Shown here: piece by piece, positions 16,309 to 27,268 of the stretch
Layout: every line of letters begins with the position of its first letter
Numbering within the stretch: the stretch's first letter is position 1
Assembly: GCA_038143065.1 (NCBI GenBank)
Contig: JAYQLI010000035.1
Coordinates: 896,001-960,000, forward strand
Direction of reading: 5' to 3'
Length of the DNA stretch: 64,000 bases
From: Rhodospirillales bacterium
GTDB lineage: Bacteria; Pseudomonadota; Alphaproteobacteria; Bin95
Notes under the pieces: generated by a model
The model's input: only the letters and a program-made list of their open reading frames with translations
What the model was told of the DNA's origin: nothing
Database searches by the model: none
Position numbers and translations under genes: made by a program

Positions 16309-16546
16309 TTTAATTGCTTGTTGCTTTCATATTGTCGATTGCATGCAGCAGCTAAATTTCACCGAAGAACTTATGTGTGATCCATACGAAAGCTAACTTC
16401 GTACGTAAGGTTATCTCCTAAGAGTTTTGCAGCTAACCTCTTACGAGTTCAGGTCTTCAAATAACGGTAGGTCAGAGGATCCAGGCTTTTGGCTATTGTC
16501 GTTTACACCAATTATTTTTCTCATTTACCCAAAGGTCGCCATTAAC

Positions 16547-16912
16547 ATGAGAAATCCAAAGGTGTTCTTTGATGGAGATTGCCCAGTTTGTTCACGTGAG
16601 ATTGATTTTTATCAGCGCAGATCAGGTGCAGAACAGATAGAATGGGTTGATGTTAATTCATGTGAAGACGTCAGTCTCCCCCCAGGCTTGGACCGCTCTA
16701 CTCTCCTAACACGCTTCCACGTTGTCGATCGGAAAGGCGAAGTCCACGAAGGTGCCGCCGCGTTTATTGCTCTATGGCGTGAGCTCCCAAGCTTCAAGGC
16801 TCCTGCAAACCTTCTTGGCTCACGTCTCGTCCTTCCAGTCCTTGAAAAGCTATATGTGTTTTTTCTCGTAGTGCGTTATAAATTCAAAATAAATCGAGAG
16901 TTCAAAAAATAA
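16547..16912 (+). CDS. DCC1-like thiol-disulfide oxidoreductase (DUF393)
   Basis: VFFDGDCPVCSREI (DxxCxxC), RFHV, GAAAF..LW. Confidence 0.88.
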   Translation: MRNPKVFFDGDCPVCSREIDFYQRRSGAEQIEWVDVNSCEDVSLPPGLDRSTLLTRFHVVDRKGEVHEGAAAFIALWRELPSFKAPANLLGSRLVLPVLEKLYVFFLVVRYKFKINREFKK

Positions 16913-18118: not shown

Positions 18119-19351
18119 TTGGCTATGGAATCTCGGTCTTACCAACTTCTAAGAAATTGGAACTTCCTGCTATTTGTTGCCGGGCGGTCCGCTAACACTC
18201 TAGCCGTCCATGGTCTAACGGTCGCTATTGGTTGGCATGTATATAAACTAACAAGTGATCCTTTAGATTTAGGTCTAGTAGGATTAGCGCAATTTGCTCC
18301 AGCATTTGTATTTTTCTTGGCTGCCGGAATAGCGGCAGATCGATTTGAAAGACGTTCAATATTAGCCATTTGCGCCGCTGCTCATTTTATTGTGACACTC
18401 GCGCTTTTCTGGGCCGTTACAAATGCTCTCAGCGTTAACTTAATATTCCTACTTCTCGCTTTGCATGGAACAGCTCGATCCTTCTATCATACAGCAAGTC
18501 AAGCCGTACTCCCCAACCTTGTCACAAAAGAACAATTTCCCAACGCGATTGCCTGGTCCTCTTCTGCCAATAAAGCTGGACAGCTCCTCGGCCCGGCCGC
18601 AGCAGGAGGCCTAATCGCGTGGATCGGAGATAGCGTTTATTGGCCTATCTTAGCCATGTTTGCTCTGGCTGGATTTGCTGCTGCTGCACTACCAAAAACT
18701 AAAAATAAAAGGATAGGTAAGACAGGAAATCTGTCAGAAATAATGGGTGGATTTGTTTACGTCTGGAGAGAGAAAATAGTCCTTGGTGCGATAACAATAG
18801 ACTTGTTAGCGGTTATGCTAGGCAGGGTGATGGGCTTACTTCCAATATATGCTGCTGACATTTTGCATGTTGGACCAGAAGGACTAGGCATAATGCGGGC
18901 AATGCCAGGAGTGGGCTCGTTAGTCGTTGGAATCGGATTAGCACAACTAGCGGCCCCCAGGCATATGGGACCGATGATGTTCATATCATTATTTGCCTTT
19001 GGAATATCGATTGTTGTGTTCAGTATTTCGACTGTATTTTGGCTGTCTCTAGCTGCGCTCGCACTCTATGGCGGGGCCGATATGATAAGCGTTTATGTCC
19101 GACAGACTTTGACGCAAATTGCTACCCCCGACTATATGCGCGGGCGTGTATCAGCAGTTAATTCCATCTCTATCAATGCCTCAAATGAGCTTGGAGATTT
19201 TAGAGCAGGAATTACAGCCGCAGCCATAGGTGCGATCCCAGCCGTACTAGTAGGTGGGATTGCAGTATGTGGGATCACTTTACTGTGGGCTTATTTATTC
19301 CCTGAGATCCGAAGAGTAGACCGCCTCAGAGATGTACAGCCTAACTTGTAA
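18119..19351 (+). CDS. MFS transporter (EntS/H+ antiporter-like)
   Basis: About 12 hydrophobic segments, G..ADRFERR, TPDYMRGRVSA. Confidence 0.9.
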   Translation: MAMESRSYQLLRNWNFLLFVAGRSANTLAVHGLTVAIGWHVYKLTSDPLDLGLVGLAQFAPAFVFFLAAGIAADRFERRSILAICAAAHFIVTLALFWAVTNALSVNLIFLLLALHGTARSFYHTASQAVLPNLVTKEQFPNAIAWSSSANKAGQLLGPAAAGGLIAWIGDSVYWPILAMFALAGFAAAALPKTKNKRIGKTGNLSEIMGGFVYVWREKIVLGAITIDLLAVMLGRVMGLLPIYAADILHVGPEGLGIMRAMPGVGSLVVGIGLAQLAAPRHMGPMMFISLFAFGISIVVFSISTVFWLSLAALALYGGADMISVYVRQTLTQIATPDYMRGRVSAVNSISINASNELGDFRAGITAAAIGAIPAVLVGGIAVCGITLLWAYLFPEIRRVDRLRDVQPNL

Positions 19352-19862
19352 TAATCTCAATTCCTCTGACAATTGCAGCATTAGCCTGTGCGGCAAGAGC
19401 TGTTTCGCTAGCCGAGGAAATTGGGTGATCAATTACAGCGAACCTGTAATCTTCAGCCCCCAAGGCCCGAGCCATAAGGTCAGCTGCACTCTCAAACTTA
19501 GAGGTCATCACCCCTACGGAAGGAACTCCCGCTTTTTCGGCCGCAATAGCGTCATGCAAACTGCACGACGAGCAGCTTCCTCAGTCACCTATCCCTGCAA
19601 AGGCCACATCCCAAGTGCTGGCTTCTGCAAGTATCTCAGGTTCCATCGGCGCGGAATAATTTCCTTTGGTTCGAATTATCACTTGGCCAGCACCAAAGTC
19701 CTTTAATAGTTGCTGCTCCATCGCTGAGAAAAACTGGACCGTGCCTCTTTTCCCATTTGAAATAAGGCCAACCGTTTTGCCCACCAAATCAGTAACTCTG
19801 GGAGCAAGTTCAAAAATTGCTCCTCCAGAAGCATACGTAGGATCAAATACTTTTATGCTCAT
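19341..19862 (-). CDS. UGSC-family selenoprotein, 173 aa, in-frame UGA at 19581-19583 read as Sec
   Basis: ORFs 19581-19862 and 19341-19559 are in the same frame, separated only by TGA: ...GIGD-U-GSCSSCSLHDAIAAEKAGVP... A GGAG RBS lies upstream and a hairpin lies downstream of the UGA. Confidence 0.88.
19550..19570 (-). promoter_or_regulatory. Putative bacterial SECIS element
   Basis: mRNA CGUCGUGCA-GUU-UGCAUGACG: 9-bp stem with one G-U pair, starting 11 nt after the UGA, apical G at +20. Confidence 0.7.
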
Positions 19863-19877
19863 ATCGCAACAAACTCC

Positions 19878-20923
19878 TTAAGCTTCGCAGTCAACGCAAG
19901 CGCCAACAGCCATAGTGACAGCCCGGCTTTTCCAGCCAAACCAAGGCGGAATGACAGCACCAAACCCCCAGCGGGCCCTCCAGCGGCAATGACTAATAAA
20001 TCATCAGATGATGGCAAGGCCCGGAACACCTCTTCTCCTCGCTCATCAACAACCATGCCTTTTCCACAACTTGCCCAATCACCTCGTGTAACTCGAGCCT
20101 TTTCAAACACAAACTGCCTAATATCTGCCTTAGACCAATTTGCCTTCTCAAAATGAGAGCGAAGTTGCGGTGGTACCACAATGGCAAAATTTCCTGACCA
20201 TATTGAATAGTGCAGCATGGATGCTTTTATTTCAGCTACAAACGTTTCAAGTATCTGCTCTGGCTCGGTCGTCCACTCATTCATAATTTGCCGTGGTGCA
20301 CCGGCTGACATAACCGTTACCGCAGACGCACCATCAGGAGAGCCACGCTCCACCGAAAGTGGAACCCACGCTGTATTTTCTTCATCTTCTGCTACGCAAT
20401 AAGAGATCTTTCCAGGATGTCCTAGTGTGGATCTGTCCACCTCACCGGGTCTAACATCCATCAAATTATAAAGTGCGAGACGAATTGCGCGGCCAATGGC
20501 CATCGTCGCCCTATCGCTTGCCCCAAGAGCATTAAACGTACCGTCCATTCCGAGTTCTTTTCGGGTTGGACCATTAATGATGGATAAGACCACACATCCG
20601 CCGGTAGACGAAGAGGCTCCATGAAGGAGGAACTCATCCTGCAGCATCGCCGTCCAGGCTGTAACGACCAAAGGAAAGTGCATAGGTAAACAGCCTGCCA
20701 TTACAGAGTTTATCGCTAATTTCTCTGCAATGATTGGCCTCGCGCGCACAGGCTCGACCCCAATCAGACTATCCGGCTCTAACATGGCCCACTCTAAGTG
20801 CGCTTTAACAAGGTCAGCGGTAGGTGGAATAATAGGAAGTCCATCTGTCCACTTCCGACTGTGAAAGTATTCCTGAGCTGCAAGCGCATCTTCGACTGTA
20901 TGAATTTCAGATTGAAAATTCAT
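19878..20923 (-). CDS. Conserved hypothetical protein (W-TDGLPIIPPT family), putative partner of the UGSC selenoprotein; frameshift near 19962
   Basis: WTDGLPIIPPT, KLAINSVMAGC, SSTGG, TLGHPGK. The corrected tail GGFGAVIPPWFGWKSRAVTMAVGACVDCEA* stops right before the next gene's RBS. Confidence 0.8.
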
Positions 20924-20924
20924 T

Positions 20925-21116
20925 CTACTTTATTCCACTTCTAACGCCCACATTCACAGCATTATCGTTTTCGGAATATTGAAACGCATCATGCAGCGCT
21001 TGCACCGTTTCGATGACGCACCCGTTAGGGCATTCCAGGCGATTAATTTCAACGACATAGTCCGGTCCCTGGCGTTCAACCAGAACCATTCCGTCAGCGC
21101 AAGATTCTGTGTTCAT
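20925..21116 (-). pseudogene. Truncated enoyl-CoA hydratase N-terminal remnant
   Basis: VLVERQGP..VVEINR.E..N....TVQALHDAF...END.AV.VGV resembles the crotonase N-terminus. It ends after 63 aa. Confidence 0.55.
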
Positions 21117-21376: not shown

Positions 21377-22297
21377 ATGAATCAGCCGTTTCCCGATATC
21401 AGTTACAAACATTTGAACGCCATTGTTTCGCTAGCGCGTTTTAGGAGCTTTATTGCCGCAGCAAGTTATCTCGGAATTTCGCAGCCAAATCTCACTCGGA
21501 TCGTGCAGCAAACCGAGAAGAAATTGAAAACTGATCTTTTTATACGGAGCCAACGAAATGTGTCGCTGACGCCCGCAGGCCAGGCGTTTTTGCCGTTTGC
21601 AGAGCACGCTGTCAGCGAATTCATACAACAAGCGGAAAACCTTCAGGCAAGCCACACCGTTCCCGAAACCCAGCTGAACATCTCATGCCTGATGTCCATC
21701 TCGCACCTCGTTTTGCCGATGGCCCTAGTAGAATTCAGAAAAGCCTATCCGCAAGTGGCTGTCGAAATCCGTGAAGGTGTGGAAAGTACAGTCCATGATG
21801 ATATTCGCGAGGGCAGAGTAGATTTCGGTATCGGCAGTATTGATGATCAACCGCCCAATGTGATCGTCGAATCAGTCATGGAAGAGCCCTTGTGTGCGGT
21901 ACTGCCACGGGACCACCCGCTCGTACGCAACGACGTTCTGAGGCTGCTAGACTTAAAGGAAACACCAATTATATCGATGCCCGTCAGTTCCGGGCTTCGA
22001 CGCGTCATTGACGCGGCAGCCATCAAAATGGGCATCCGTCTTGTCCATGACGTGGTTACAAACCAGTACAATTCGTTATTCAGTTTTGTGTCGAACGGAC
22101 TGGGTATTGCGATCGTGCCGGCATCGGTGTTGCCTCCTGTTGCAGATGATTACTTTGTCGTACGCTCACTAACACCCTCAATGACACGGCAAATCGGTGT
22201 GATGCATCTTAACGACAGCCCCCTCAGTGCTGCCTCTGAATCATTCTTGCGCACGCTCCGTCCCATGTTGACCGAAGCGATAGCTGGGTCACGATAG
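21377..22297 (+). CDS. LysR family transcriptional regulator
   Basis: SFIAAASYLGISQPNLTRIVQQTE..L...LF.R..R.V.LT.AG HTH, VDFGI, V.NGLGIAIVP. Confidence 0.95.
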   Translation: MNQPFPDISYKHLNAIVSLARFRSFIAAASYLGISQPNLTRIVQQTEKKLKTDLFIRSQRNVSLTPAGQAFLPFAEHAVSEFIQQAENLQASHTVPETQLNISCLMSISHLVLPMALVEFRKAYPQVAVEIREGVESTVHDDIREGRVDFGIGSIDDQPPNVIVESVMEEPLCAVLPRDHPLVRNDVLRLLDLKETPIISMPVSSGLRRVIDAAAIKMGIRLVHDVVTNQYNSLFSFVSNGLGIAIVPASVLPPVADDYFVVRSLTPSMTRQIGVMHLNDSPLSAASESFLRTLRPMLTEAIAGSR

Positions 22298-22648: not shown

Positions 22649-24963
22649 TTATTCCGCTGCTATTGCTGGCGCAGATCGCACCGAAATTTCAGGAAGGGTG
22701 CCTCTAAATTTCTCAACTTCGACTAATGCAGAGTGGGCCGATGTCCCCTGACCAAGTTGAGACGTACCTTCGTCCCGCGTGAGCACGTTGGGATTCCCAT
22801 GCTTTTCTAGAGCGGATGCAGGCCTCAATGGATCTGCCGGATCAAACCATGCCCCTGTTGGAAATTGGATAACGCTGGGCATTACGACATCGGATACAAT
22901 TACCCCAGCTAGAGTTTGGCCCCTGTCGTTAAAAACCCGCGCAATATCGCCGTCTTCTAATCCTCGTGCTTTTGCATCTATTGGATTAATCCAAATTGGC
23001 TCCCTGCCCTTTATCTTTGACTTCAGGCTCGCTCCGCCCGCATCCATTTGACTGTGCAACCTAGTCTTTGGTTGGTTTGATAGCATATGCAGCGGGAAGC
23101 GCTGTGCGCTTGGAGATCCGAGGTATTCCTTGGGCTCTCGCCATGCAGCGTATCCCGGACAATCCTCATAACCAAATCCAGAAACACGCTCAGAAAATAG
23201 TTCTATTTTTCCAGATGGAGTATTGAGAGAATTTTCTATCGGGTCCAACCTAAAATCAGAATATTGAACAAAGGGCTTAGAAGGTTTGGGTACCTCATAC
23301 CATCCTTGTTCCCAAAAGTCCTGAAAGGATGGCATTTCAATGCCACGCCTGGAAGCTAGCTGACGAGACACATTGTATATGTGTTCTAACCACTCCATTT
23401 CTGAACGACCTTCGGTGAACTGCTCAAGGTATCCCATGCGCTCAGACAGATCTTTGAAAATTTCATGATCTGAACGTGCCTTGCCGACTGGTTCGCTGGC
23501 TTTATGCATTGCAATAATATGCGGGTCTCGGCCACCAGATCCGATATCGTTGCGCTCCAGAGTAGTAGTAGCCGGTAAAACAATGTCTGCATGTCGAACC
23601 GTAGCTGTCCACCAGATATCTTGGACAATTATTGTTTCAGGACGCCTCCACGCTTCCACCAACCGATTTAAGTCTTGATGATGATGAAATGGGTTACCCC
23701 CACACCAATAGATTAATTTTGTGTCAGGATATGTTCTTGTCTCCCCATTAAATTCATATTCCTGACCAGGTTTGAGCAGAAGATCAGCAATCCGTGCAAC
23801 AGGGATCCAACTATCCGCCCTATTGATACCAGCTGGCATAGTAGGTGAAGGTACTCTCTCCCGTGGAGCACCCATTCCACCTACTGAGCCCATACCAAAA
23901 GCAAAGCCTCCACCAGTCTTACCAATTTGACCAAGCATGGCCGCTAAGCTAATCATTGCCCAGTATGGCTGCTCTCCGTGATCCGCCCTTTGAAGCCCCC
24001 ATGCCATATTCAAAAAGGTGCGTACACTTGCCATTTCAGTAGCTAGAGAACGAATTTTTTCTTCTGAAATCCCCGTGATCTTAGATGCCCATTCAGGGGT
24101 CTTTGCTACACCGTCATCTTCCCCCATCAAATGTGTCCGCAGGCGCTCAAAGCCAACACAGTAGCTTTCCAAAAACCCAATATCTGCTTGGCCTGCCTCT
24201 ATCAGGACATATGCCATAGCAAGGATGAGTGCTGTATCCGTGTTAGGACGGATAGGAATCCATTCTGAATTAGCCGCGCCTTCTAAATCTTCTCGAAGGG
24301 TGAAATATTAACAAAACGTATACCATTGGCAGTTGCTTGATTTAAAAAATTTGCCATCCGGTGAGTGCCGTTACCGCCGGCGTCAACTTGTGCATTTTTA
24401 AGGGGCATGCCCCCAAAACAAACAACCAACTTGGTCTCTGCAAGAATACCATCCCAATCACTTACTGGACCTTGAGCAGCTTCTGCTGTCCCCAAAATGT
24501 GAGGTAAAACTGCTAGTGCAGCGGCATAACTGTAGTTGTGCAGTTGCCCGGTAAAACCACCATGTAGGTTCATAAAGCGCTGCATTTGCGTTTTTGCATG
24601 GTGGAAGCGACCTGCAGATGACCAACCATAGGAACCTGCGAAAATCGACTCATTTCCGTGTTCAGCTTTAACTCTTTTCAATTCGGCGGCCACGCACTCT
24701 AATGCCCTATCCCAGGAGACTGGCACAAATGGTTCAGTACCACGTAACTCTGGCTTTGCTCCTGGACCGTGAAGAGCAACACTTTTTCGCATATAAGGTT
24801 CCGAAATTCGTGTTTCGGAATAAAGCATTGCTGGAATTGCGTCTAAAATTTGAGAAGGTGATGTATCCTGCTCAAAAGGCTTGACGCCAACCACACGGCC
24901 ATCTGAAACTTCTGCTCTAAACGCTCCCCAATGGGATCCATGCATTACGCCATTATCAGGCAT
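22649..24963 (-). CDS. Mo-bisPGD S/N-oxide reductase, BisC/TorZ/DorA-like (frameshift near 24285)
   Basis: HGSHWGAF, GSYGWSSAGRFHHA, NYSYAAA (Ser ligand), GGNPFHHHQDLN, RLHSQ, HGNPNVLT.D.GTS.LGQG. No Tat signal. Confidence 0.93.
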
Positions 24964-26230: not shown

Positions 26231-27268
26231 ATGTTAAGTTCAGAAGACGGTAAAATCGTGCCTGAGCAACCAATCCAAGATCAATCTCTCTGGGTCGGAG
26301 ATGATTTTAATGCGAACAATGATTGGAAGATGCCCATTCCACTTGATGTCGTTGCAGATATTGAAGTAGCCCTACCAGGGCTAAAACAAAAATCTTTACA
26401 TCCTAGAGATATTCGCCCCGAGCATTTTCCCCTGCCCAATTCAAAATCATTTTTAAATAGCGTTAATCAGGCAATTGAGGTTGGACCTGGTTTTGCTCTA
26501 CTCACTGGGTTTCCCACGCAGCAATTAGGAGCAGCTGACGCCAGCATCGCTTATCAGGGTTTCATGAGCCATTTTGGAAATATAGCAATCCAAAATCGAA
26601 TAGGTGAATACGTTGTAGAGGTTTCCAACAAAGGTCGAGGACTTGGTCCTCAAGCCAGGGGACATTACGGCAATGCTGAACTCAACTTTCACGCAGATGG
26701 CGGCAACGCAGTATCTCTTCTTTGTTTGGAAACTGCTCCAAAAGGCGGTCAGAGCCTTCTGATTGGAGCAGCCGCAGTTTACAACGCCATTCTTAGAGAA
26801 CGGCCAGATATATTGCCGATTTTGGAAAGAGGTTTTTATCATCATCGTCGCGATGAAAGAGAAGAGCATGATCCTAAGGTAACTCCCTGGCGCACGCCGG
26901 TCTTCGCTTACTACGATGACCGCTTACACTTAATCTATACACGTATCTCCATCGATTACTGTGAGGCGGAGGGCGTTGAGATAACCCCTACGGAAAAGGA
27001 TGCACTGGATTTTCTGGACAGTGTACTCTCCCGGCCAGAGTTACAAGTTTCTATGGATCTTGCTCCAGGAGACTTACAGATTGTTAATAATTTTCTCTGT
27101 TTACACGCCCGAACTTCTTACCAAGATTCTGAAAGTCAAAAGCGACGATTGATAAGGCTCTGGCTAGACAACGAAAACAGCTTACGAAATGGCCCAGGAA
27201 AAATGGACTGGTACATGCCGGAACATTCAAGATTTTTGAGAGAACGAAGATCATTATTAACAGAATAA
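26231..27268 (+). CDS. TauD/TfdA family 2OG-Fe(II) dioxygenase
   Basis: FHAD (HxD), LLCLE.A.KGG.S, NNF.CLHART.YQD, R.LIRLWL. Confidence 0.9.
   Translation: MLSSEDGKIVPEQPIQDQSLWVGDDFNANNDWKMPIPLDVVADIEVALPGLKQKSLHPRDIRPEHFPLPNSKSFLNSVNQAIEVGPGFALLTGFPTQQLGAADASIAYQGFMSHFGNIAIQNRIGEYVVEVSNKGRGLGPQARGHYGNAELNFHADGGNAVSLLCLETAPKGGQSLLIGAAAVYNAILRERPDILPILERGFYHHRRDEREEHDPKVTPWRTPVFAYYDDRLHLIYTRISIDYCEAEGVEITPTEKDALDFLDSVLSRPELQVSMDLAPGDLQIVNNFLCLHARTSYQDSESQKRRLIRLWLDNENSLRNGPGKMDWYMPEHSRFLRERRSLLTE

Follow-up and report, generated by a model that had tools for sequence, protein, structure and literature searches.

A UGSC-family selenoprotein with an obligate partner of an unnamed family, and a probable remote link of its selenocysteine domain to GrdB/PrdB

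Two neighboring genes on the minus strand of a 64,000-nucleotide (nt) stretch of a Rhodospirillales genome (assembly GCA_038143065.1, contig JAYQLI010000035.1, positions 896,001 to 960,000; the whole stretch is called the window here) raise the question of whether a small selenoprotein and the protein encoded just ahead of it act as one enzyme, and which known selenium chemistry such an enzyme would resemble. The initial annotation had described a UxxCxxC selenoprotein, a partner of ~347 amino acids (aa) carrying TDGLPIIPPT, and a partner stop codon abutting a GGAG, a layout that is accurate throughout by sequence reading; it took the pair for an uncharacterised two-gene redox system resembling protein B of glycine and proline reductase (GrdB/PrdB). 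We found that the locus encodes a typical member of UGSC, a selenoprotein family that is known but uncharacterised, accompanied by an obligate unnamed partner, that the two genes belong together, and that the selenocysteine (Sec, U)-bearing domain is probably, judged by profile comparison, a remote homolog of the one in GrdB/PrdB.

Under translation table 11 the frame of the selenoprotein gene runs from ATG 19862 to TGA 19583-19581, and the same frame continues onward to TAG 19343-19341. When the TGA is translated as U, the product reads ...AFAGIGD-U-GSCSSC-SLHDAIAAEKAGVPSVGVMT...RFAVIDHPISS with Sec at residue 94 (GSCSSC-SLHDAIAAEKAGVPSVG...FAVIDHPIS in the shorter quotation of the Sec region). 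This product matches the Pfam model PF24696, "UGSC family", with an E value of 8e-46 and 156.7 bits against a cut-off of 25, and the match extends over the full length (protein residues 5-170; model positions 2-169 out of 172). Its score with the NCBIfam model NF041046, "UGSC family (seleno)protein", was 119.3 bits with U read as C, which is just under the 125-bit equivalog cut-off, and the NCBI pipeline would therefore not name the protein automatically from this model alone. The motif D93-U94-G95-S96-C97 lies in the middle of the ~170-aa protein, and an alignment of 50 sequences shows no variation at C94, G95 or C97. A protein homolog search returned only five proteins, presumably because gene callers cut the frame at the TGA, so the UGSC genes were taken from DNA. 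In all 68 UGSC genes that adjoin partners in other genomes, a single TGA occurs in frame and falls on the U position, and the same codon occupies this position in 36 of the 38 UGSC matches found in 17 genomes of the class.

Shortly past the TGA, the sequence can fold into the hairpin CGUCGUGCA-GUU-UGCAUGACG (-18.4 kcal/mol). In an alignment of 68 distinct sequences taken from other genomes, pairing was seen in 89.5% of the pair cells, compared with 10.6-50.5% in slid controls, and both sides had changed in five of the nine pairs (19 cells), a covariation score that was reached by none of 500 shuffles. The TGA occupies alignment columns 4-6 and the hairpin columns 17-37, and the loop positions G26 and T27 (U in the RNA) are invariant. 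A bacterial Sec insertion sequence (SECIS) is a stem-loop shortly past the UGA whose apical loop requires a G and a U, as in Escherichia coli fdhF, and the conserved, covarying hairpin has the form expected of such an element. The genome, which is 97.6% complete (4.63 Mb, 52 contigs), encodes both a tRNA-Sec (RF01852, 71.5 bits against a gathering score of 47) and SelA (E 1.8e-140). Altogether, the TGA kept in every adjoining homolog, the covarying hairpin and the presence of tRNA-Sec and SelA confirmed the in-frame TGA as a real Sec codon. In several metagenomes, contigs match the window only over a core of ~40 nt (19548-19591) that holds the Sec codon and the hairpin and diverge on either side; a match limited in this way suggests that the UGSC/SECIS core is kept at the nucleotide level across organisms or paralogs.

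We then asked how regularly the selenoprotein gene and the partner gene occur together. A scan of species-representative genomes gave at least 615 partner loci, of which 80 were kept for neighborhood analysis; one carrier of the pair is the cultivable Sheuella amnicola NBD-18 (L030). In 68 of these 80, a UGSC gene lay no more than 4 kb from the partner, and of the 12 loci without one, four are cut off by a contig end. Both genes could be resolved in 64 loci (a pattern search left the partner open reading frame (ORF) unresolved in five of the 80), with UGSC downstream on the same strand in 58, upstream in three and on the opposite strand in three; the gap between the genes was at most 150 nt in 54 of the 58 downstream same-strand loci, with a median of 28. 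Across 121 genomes of the class, sampled at one per genus, UGSC and the partner occurred in the identical 17 genomes, at adjoining coordinates, and neither occurred in the other 104, in a sample of related genomes that are not independent of one another.

The genome that contains the window shows the same association in several arrangements. It has five UGSC loci, four of them with a TGA. Besides the pair in the window, one locus consists of a UGSC-Sec gene followed by two partner paralogs (L002, C35:1742085-1745594), another has a 479-aa partner with a CPTC-containing N-terminal extension ahead of UGSC-Sec (L003, C35:107617-111111), and two are fusions, namely a single 578-aa UGSC-Sec::partner ORF (L004, C35:2124040-2127564) and a 549-aa ORF that has neither Sec nor Cys at the U position (CDGGTAAS; L005, C36:10985-14491). 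Strict co-occurrence, adjacency and fusion thus show that the two genes belong together, as the initial annotation had supposed from a single locus. Five UGSC matches together with seven or eight partner-family matches make an unusually large paralog set for one genome, and one of the partner matches (C35:2590498-2591475) lies far from all five UGSC matches.

The selenoprotein had been presented as part of an uncharacterised system, but it is not a new find: the family already has a name and has been in print since 2007-2008. A 2007 paper, which also names Hyphomonas neptunium, lists the "UGSC-containing protein" among selenoproteins without a known function (PMC1976440). The passages on this family in the Global Ocean Sampling (GOS) survey count 255 Sec forms and 21 Cys homologs, place UGSC third after SelW-like and SelD among the named-motif families, call its fold "likely" thioredoxin-like, and describe UGSC fused to a cysteine-containing conserved domain, "Unknown_1", in aquatic organisms (Figure S1A) (PMC2398784). 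A fusion of UGSC to an unknown domain had already been published in that survey, and the two UGSC::partner fusions of the present genome resemble it. Unknown_1 is likely the partner family. Unlike the present locus, the passages in PMC2398784 describe no separate-gene arrangement, strict co-occurrence or link to GrdB. In the sections that deal with the family, reviews of 2022 (PMC9312934) and 2026 (PMC13188914) still list UGSC without a function, and among the papers listed by full-text searches for the UGSC selenoprotein none tied it specifically to GrdB/PrdB, the terms occurring together only in general surveys. In its Sec-containing UGSC motif, its length of ~170 aa and its aquatic or estuarine source runs, the protein of the window is like the family of Zhang and Gladyshev; it differs from that literature in its modeled fold, which is Rossmann-like here and "likely" thioredoxin-like there, and is otherwise an ordinary member. 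For the window itself this is modest news, one more example and one with an assembly error. Few selenoprotein families are as abundant as UGSC in metagenomes of ocean and fresh water, and the partner, the fusions and the probable GrdB/PrdB link make this orphan family a defined two-component target.

The partner family is very large, comprising at least 4960 sequence clusters, and is without a Pfam or NCBIfam model. Its conserved features are W-T-D-G-L-P-x-x-P-P-T, A-V-M-A-G-C, G-H-P-G-K and A-E-D-E, and the residues that are invariant in an alignment of 45 sequences (headed by the close homolog P0001) include D27-G28-L29-P30, P33, M75-A76-G77-C78, G118-P119, R138, R145, N153 and E179, with C78 as the sole invariant cysteine. 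A Pfam scan of the 45 sequences identified no family, with scattered matches at E 0.035 or weaker, and an NCBIfam scan of partner sequences gave nothing below E 0.043. In a protein atlas the partner fell into unnamed clusters only, one of them auto-named "Thioredoxin family protein", and its profile matched solved-structure sequences at a best E of 0.85. A structural model built from the same 45 sequences had a predicted local distance difference test score (pLDDT) of 93 and a predicted template modeling score of 0.92. When compared by VIA-align with 48,161 chains, the model gave a best Z of 4.8 and no match at Z 5 or above. Three candidate relationships were rejected as too weak to name a fold: the alpha subunit of class I fumarate hydratase (Foldseek E 1.6e-4, template modeling (TM) score 0.31), the "Toblerone" fold of cyclic amide hydrolases (Foldseek TM scores in the 0.16-0.31 range), and a chorismate mutase or Rid-like fold for residues 206-333 (Z at most 4.8). 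The partner has no clear solved structural relative.

The UGSC protein gave a confident model from the 50-sequence alignment (pLDDT 94.6), in which five successive beta-alpha units are predicted and U94 lies between the third strand (86-92) and helix 95-110, with C97 in the first helical turn. An all-against-all structural search returned only Rossmann or flavodoxin-like matches. The best of these was a component of the methyl-coenzyme M reductase activation complex (Z 11.6, root-mean-square deviation 2.9, 130 aligned residues), followed by a designed Rossmann protein (Z 10.8) and by halves of periplasmic binding proteins, TIR domains and receiver domains (Z 9-10.5); these matches are effectively tied and have no bearing on function. 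Foldseek gave generic P-loop, Rossmann or TIR matches only, with TM scores of at most 0.5, and a search of the UGSC profile against solved-structure sequences found nothing (best E 3). The thioredoxin fold is a mixed-sheet beta-alpha-beta-alpha-beta-beta-alpha arrangement with the redox motif after the first strand. On the predicted model, with its five beta-alpha units and U94 after the third strand, we rejected this fold for UGSC. With CxxC and UxxC oxidoreductases of the thioredoxin fold the protein appears to have in common that U-x-x-C stands at the N-terminus of a helix and likely forms a selenenylsulfide couple; it differs from them in its five predicted beta-alpha units and its Rossmann or flavodoxin-like matches at Z 9-11.6.

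Is the Sec domain then related to that of GrdB/PrdB? The likeness had first been drawn with a motif given for clostridial GrdB. GrdB, GrdF, GrdH and PrdB belong to PF07355, and selenoprotein genes of this family were present in 13 of the 121 class genomes. The present genome has two of them, both with U-P-x-C motifs, located elsewhere than the pair (L086, 721-2046, minus strand; L087, 1057-2301, minus strand), and the Sec region of one such protein reads ...LLLPV-U-PNCTRAVCAIAHQLEAAGLPTTLI. We cut ~195 residues around Sec from the 10 of 18 PF07355 loci in which a motif pattern found Sec there, and aligned them with the UGSC profile using hhalign. The alignment had a score of 41.5 over 81 columns (UGSC 62-151) and a probability of 84.9%, which is below the usual comfort zone of 90-95% and refers to 10 alphaproteobacterial sequences, with no characterised clostridial GrdB or PrdB among them. 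It placed U on U, E-x-x-G-x-P on E-x-x-G-x-P, and H-P on F-P; the second of these pairs E..AG(I/V)P of UGSC with E..AG(I/L)P of the PF07355 sequences. Control scores were much lower: 12.1 for the reversed profile, at most 18.4 in 12 column shuffles, and at most 29.2 in 12 shuffles of 10-column blocks. An earlier alignment of the UGSC profile with a single GrdB-like sequence had also set U on U, at a probability of 2.4%. Both groups of proteins share U-x-x-C...E-x-x-G-(I/V/L)-P with a 15-residue spacing from U to E and a later (H/F/R)P, and in both, Sec stands where a beta strand has ended and a helix begins. The profile alignment is suggestive support for the likeness of the Sec region that had been noted by eye; by it, the Sec-bearing alpha/beta domain of UGSC is probably a remote homolog of the GrdB/PrdB one, which is not the same as membership of that family. 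UGSC differs from GrdB/PrdB in that it consists of the ~170-aa Sec domain only and its partner is unrelated to the rest of the GrdB-like protein.

Taking these observations together, we moderately favor the reading that the locus encodes a two-protein selenium-dependent redox enzyme, made of the UGSC Sec subunit and the partner and sometimes fused into one chain. Complex formation, the redox cycle, its electron donor and any substrate are parts of this proposal that we infer. In such an enzyme, Sec94 and Cys97 at the predicted helix N-terminus would form a selenol/thiol couple that passes to a selenenylsulfide. The partner would most likely bind the substrate and supply the remaining active site, and U94/C97 would carry out the redox step, either as the attacking nucleophile or as the immediate reductant. 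The oxidised Sec/Cys pair could then be reduced again by a thiol relay, through the C-terminal CxxC of the partner in this subfamily and through the N-terminal CPTC extension in other paralogs, with thioredoxin ultimately as the donor.

The initial annotation had made the partner a dithiol-bearing subunit. Its corrected frame does end in a CxxC, but this motif is no hallmark of the family as a whole: of the 75 partner ORFs examined, 29 have it, and neither fused paralog does. Where the partner has it, the third Cys of U-G-S-C-x-x-C in UGSC is kept in 27 of 27 cases, and where the partner lacks it this Cys is kept in 25 and lost in 12, a comparison among related sequences that is no independent test. 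Among 11 long forms of the partner, five carry CPTC or CATC in an N-terminal extension. The C-terminal CxxC is thus plausibly a subfamily accessory that could serve as a thiol relay, and not a defining second redox centre.

A more specific possibility, which we put forward tentatively and hold to be rather doubtful, is that the pair represents a widespread class of Sec-dependent reductases derived from the GrdB/PrdB Sec domain with a catalytic subunit of new fold, performing reductive C-X cleavage (C-N, C-S or similar) or another difficult reduction of an abundant environmental compound. The betaine- or sulfonium-type compounds that the initial annotation named as substrates of C-N or C-S cleavage are speculative. 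If true, a GrdB-derived reductase class would explain why UGSC is so common in the ocean; its carriers come from estuarine and marine samples.

Several results weigh against these proposals. Besides the hhalign probability itself and the sequences on which it rests, PF07355 matched none of the 50 UGSC sequences at E values up to 10, a result of little weight because the model ends just ahead of Sec (its matches stop at position 344-346 of 347). Comparison of the partner with the rest of the GrdB-like protein showed no similarity (probability 0.2%), no Grd or Prd family occurred among the weak Pfam matches of the 45 partner sequences, and no solved chain matched a GRDB-family protein of the genome by sequence, nor was any GrdB or PrdB among the fold matches of UGSC. 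GrdE/PrdA (PF09338) and GrdA (PF04723) were not found in the 97.6%-complete genome, in a search whose control genomes were equally silent and whose sensitivity is unproven. As to the earlier statement that no classical Grd/Prd cluster is nearby, two selenoproteins of the GrdB/PrdB family are encoded elsewhere in the genome. A Pfam scan of the N-terminal extensions of long partners gave none of 15 above threshold, with two weak TraF matches and no thioredoxin. Of the 76 partner loci that could be evaluated, eight lack a UGSC gene at a distance of up to 4 kb, and the neighborhoods of 30 related loci are heterogeneous and give no pointer to a substrate.

The same data have to be weighed for an arrangement in which UGSC is an electron carrier only, a shuttle comparable with thioredoxin or GrdA, whose Sec never meets the substrate while the chemistry takes place on the partner. 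Redox shuttles classically have their motif where a helix begins, as U-x-x-C is placed here, the partner has the larger set of invariant polar residues as well as an invariant Cys, and some paralogs have a non-cysteine context in place of Sec, as in the CDGGTAAS of the fused L005. In GrdB and PrdB, Sec is the nucleophile that attacks the substrate, and the Sec region of UGSC is like theirs; moreover, the near-universal retention of Sec, in 68 of 68 adjoining genes and in the Sec-to-Cys ratio counted by GOS, suggests demanding chemistry. We therefore regard a pure shuttle as unlikely, and prefer a Sec that takes part in the redox step of a two-protein enzyme.

It is also conceivable that U/C-x2-C-x2-C binds a metal or an iron-sulfur (Fe-S) cluster, which would make the pair a metal-handling or cluster-dependent system rather than a selenol/thiol reductase. 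The motif is cysteine-rich, five of the 50 UGSC sequences gave sub-threshold matches to CIAPIN1, an Fe-S motif family (best E 0.032), and class I fumarate hydratase, to which the partner model has the weak match given above, is an Fe-S enzyme. In 12 of 64 UGSC genes, G, W, S or R stands in place of the third Cys, the CIAPIN1 matches lie below every threshold, and the fold matches of the partner have low TM scores and Z values under 5, which makes metal binding quite improbable next to a selenol/thiol couple.

A further question is whether the partner is intact in this organism. As read in the window under table 11, its ORF runs from ATG 20923 to 19859, encodes 354 aa (N-terminal part ...WTDGLPIIPPT / ...HSRKWTDGLPIIPPT) and overlaps the start of the selenoprotein gene, with one base missing. 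Past the five-G run (coding strand), a second frame gives GFGAVIPPWFGWKSRAVTMAVGACVDCEA*, its stop codon being TAA 19880-19878. When the 354-aa ORF served as the query of a homolog search, 4960 of 8000 scored candidates proved to be relatives, and the best 120 of these are mostly 347-352 aa long with a query coverage of only 84-91%. Homologs of 347-348 aa have exactly the C-terminus of the corrected frame; one of them, P0001, of 348 aa and 99% identical to the window partner, ends together with four other homologs in ...AAGGPAGGFGAVIPPW(F/L)G.KS.A(V/I)T.A(V/I)GAC(V/L)DC.., and across the C run at 19965-19969 homologs read AGGPAGGFGAVIPPW. We also compared window positions 19300-21000 with Logan contigs from four public runs. 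An extra C behind 19964 was present, at the full depth of each run, in all three DNA runs (X1, X5 and X6, from three studies), and in an RNA-library run (X15) two contigs have gained a C or a T there. The X1 contig extends across all of the compared stretch, and over its 1701 bases five other letters differ.

Other genes of the assembly are broken in a similar manner. A molybdopterin oxidoreductase gene of the dimethyl sulfoxide reductase type (22649-24963, minus strand) changes frame near 24290-24310 and so falls into two ORFs, 24283-24963 and 22649-24217; the break is probably another insertion or deletion error of the assembly. The C-termini of two paralogous partner genes (2035-2140 in L003 and 395-1438 in L002, both on the minus strand) are out of frame. 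In L003, the frame of the partner is lost at a G/C run, giving a spurious in-frame TGA; we rejected this codon as a second Sec, since the other frame restores the family C-terminus past the run. The SelA match (C35:594757-595869) contains one internal TAA in the assembly. The broken paralogs and the TAA in SelA point to systematic homopolymer errors. Considering the ends of the homologs, the independent contigs and these other broken genes, the true partner gene is 19878-20923 plus one base, encoding 348 aa, and we take the shift of frame seen in the window to be an assembly error in a homopolymer, in a gene that is not dead. The one-base indel near 19962 and the ...ACVDCEA* ending that the initial annotation had deduced are in agreement with the homologs and with all three DNA runs. 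A true frameshift in the strain, whether by pseudogene formation or as a programmed event, which would leave the pair nonfunctional here, is suggested by the window sequence itself, with five C instead of six at 19965-19969; given the extra base in DNA runs of three studies and the same kind of break in the molybdopterin oxidoreductase, a paralogous partner and SelA, we consider it very unlikely.

The reading of the TGA as an ordinary stop between two unrelated small ORFs (19581-19862 and 19341-19559), which follows from table 11 splitting the frame into 93-aa and 72-aa ORFs, is refuted for practical purposes by the single Pfam model that covers both halves, by the TGA retained in every adjoining homolog with conserved sequence on either side, and by the covarying SECIS-like hairpin in a genome with Sec machinery.

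Table 1. Positions of the selenoprotein-partner pair and associated features in the window
Feature	Position	Strand	Details
UGSC-family selenoprotein gene	19341..19862	-	173 aa, TGA read as Sec; stop 19341-19343
SECIS-like hairpin	19550..19570	-	9-bp stem and 3-nt apical loop; begins 10 nt past the TGA
Sec codon TGA	19581..19583	-	codon 94, first residue of U-G-S-C; from translation and homolog position
GGAG, candidate ribosome-binding site	19874..19877	-	from sequence reading; putative function
Partner gene, unnamed family	19878..20923	-	corrected product 348 aa, ending ...GACVDCEA
Partner C-terminal C-V-D-C	19887..19898	-	corrected frame; from frame reading and homologs
C run, one base short	19965..19969		5 C on the plus strand (5 G coding); source of the frameshift
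LysR-type regulator	21377..22297	+	divergent; Pfam HTH_1 and LysR_substrate

The GGAG listed in Table 1 stands directly past the partner stop and 11 nt ahead of the UGSC start codon. The pair is flanked by a convergent gene for a major facilitator superfamily (MFS) transporter (18119-19351), whose 3' end overlaps that of the UGSC gene by 11 nt, and by a 63-aa ORF on the minus strand (20925-21116). This ORF ends 1 nt ahead of the partner ATG. It is like crotonase/enoyl-CoA hydratases over their N-terminal ~55 residues only, at E 6e-5 and 22.6 bits, far below the cut-off of 273. Either a vestige of a gene or a short leader ORF would be possible, and no such ORF was seen upstream of the partner in related loci. 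We surveyed the two nearest ORFs on each side of the pair in 30 related loci, with 86 of the 236 listed neighbor ORFs left out. Among the families found were MFS transporters (five loci), LysR regulators (four), family III CoA-transferases (four), and TctC, Amidohydro_2, glyoxalase and SelA (three each); the loci with selA among the two nearest neighbors are L013, L034 and L036. The association with LysR is weak, and the divergent LysR-type gene of the window may regulate the pair. Together, UGSC and its partner form a self-contained module. Within 7 kb of the pair in the window, both on the plus strand, are genes for a DCC1-like thiol-disulfide oxidoreductase (16427-16912) and a dioxygenase of the TauD/TfdA family (26231-27268).

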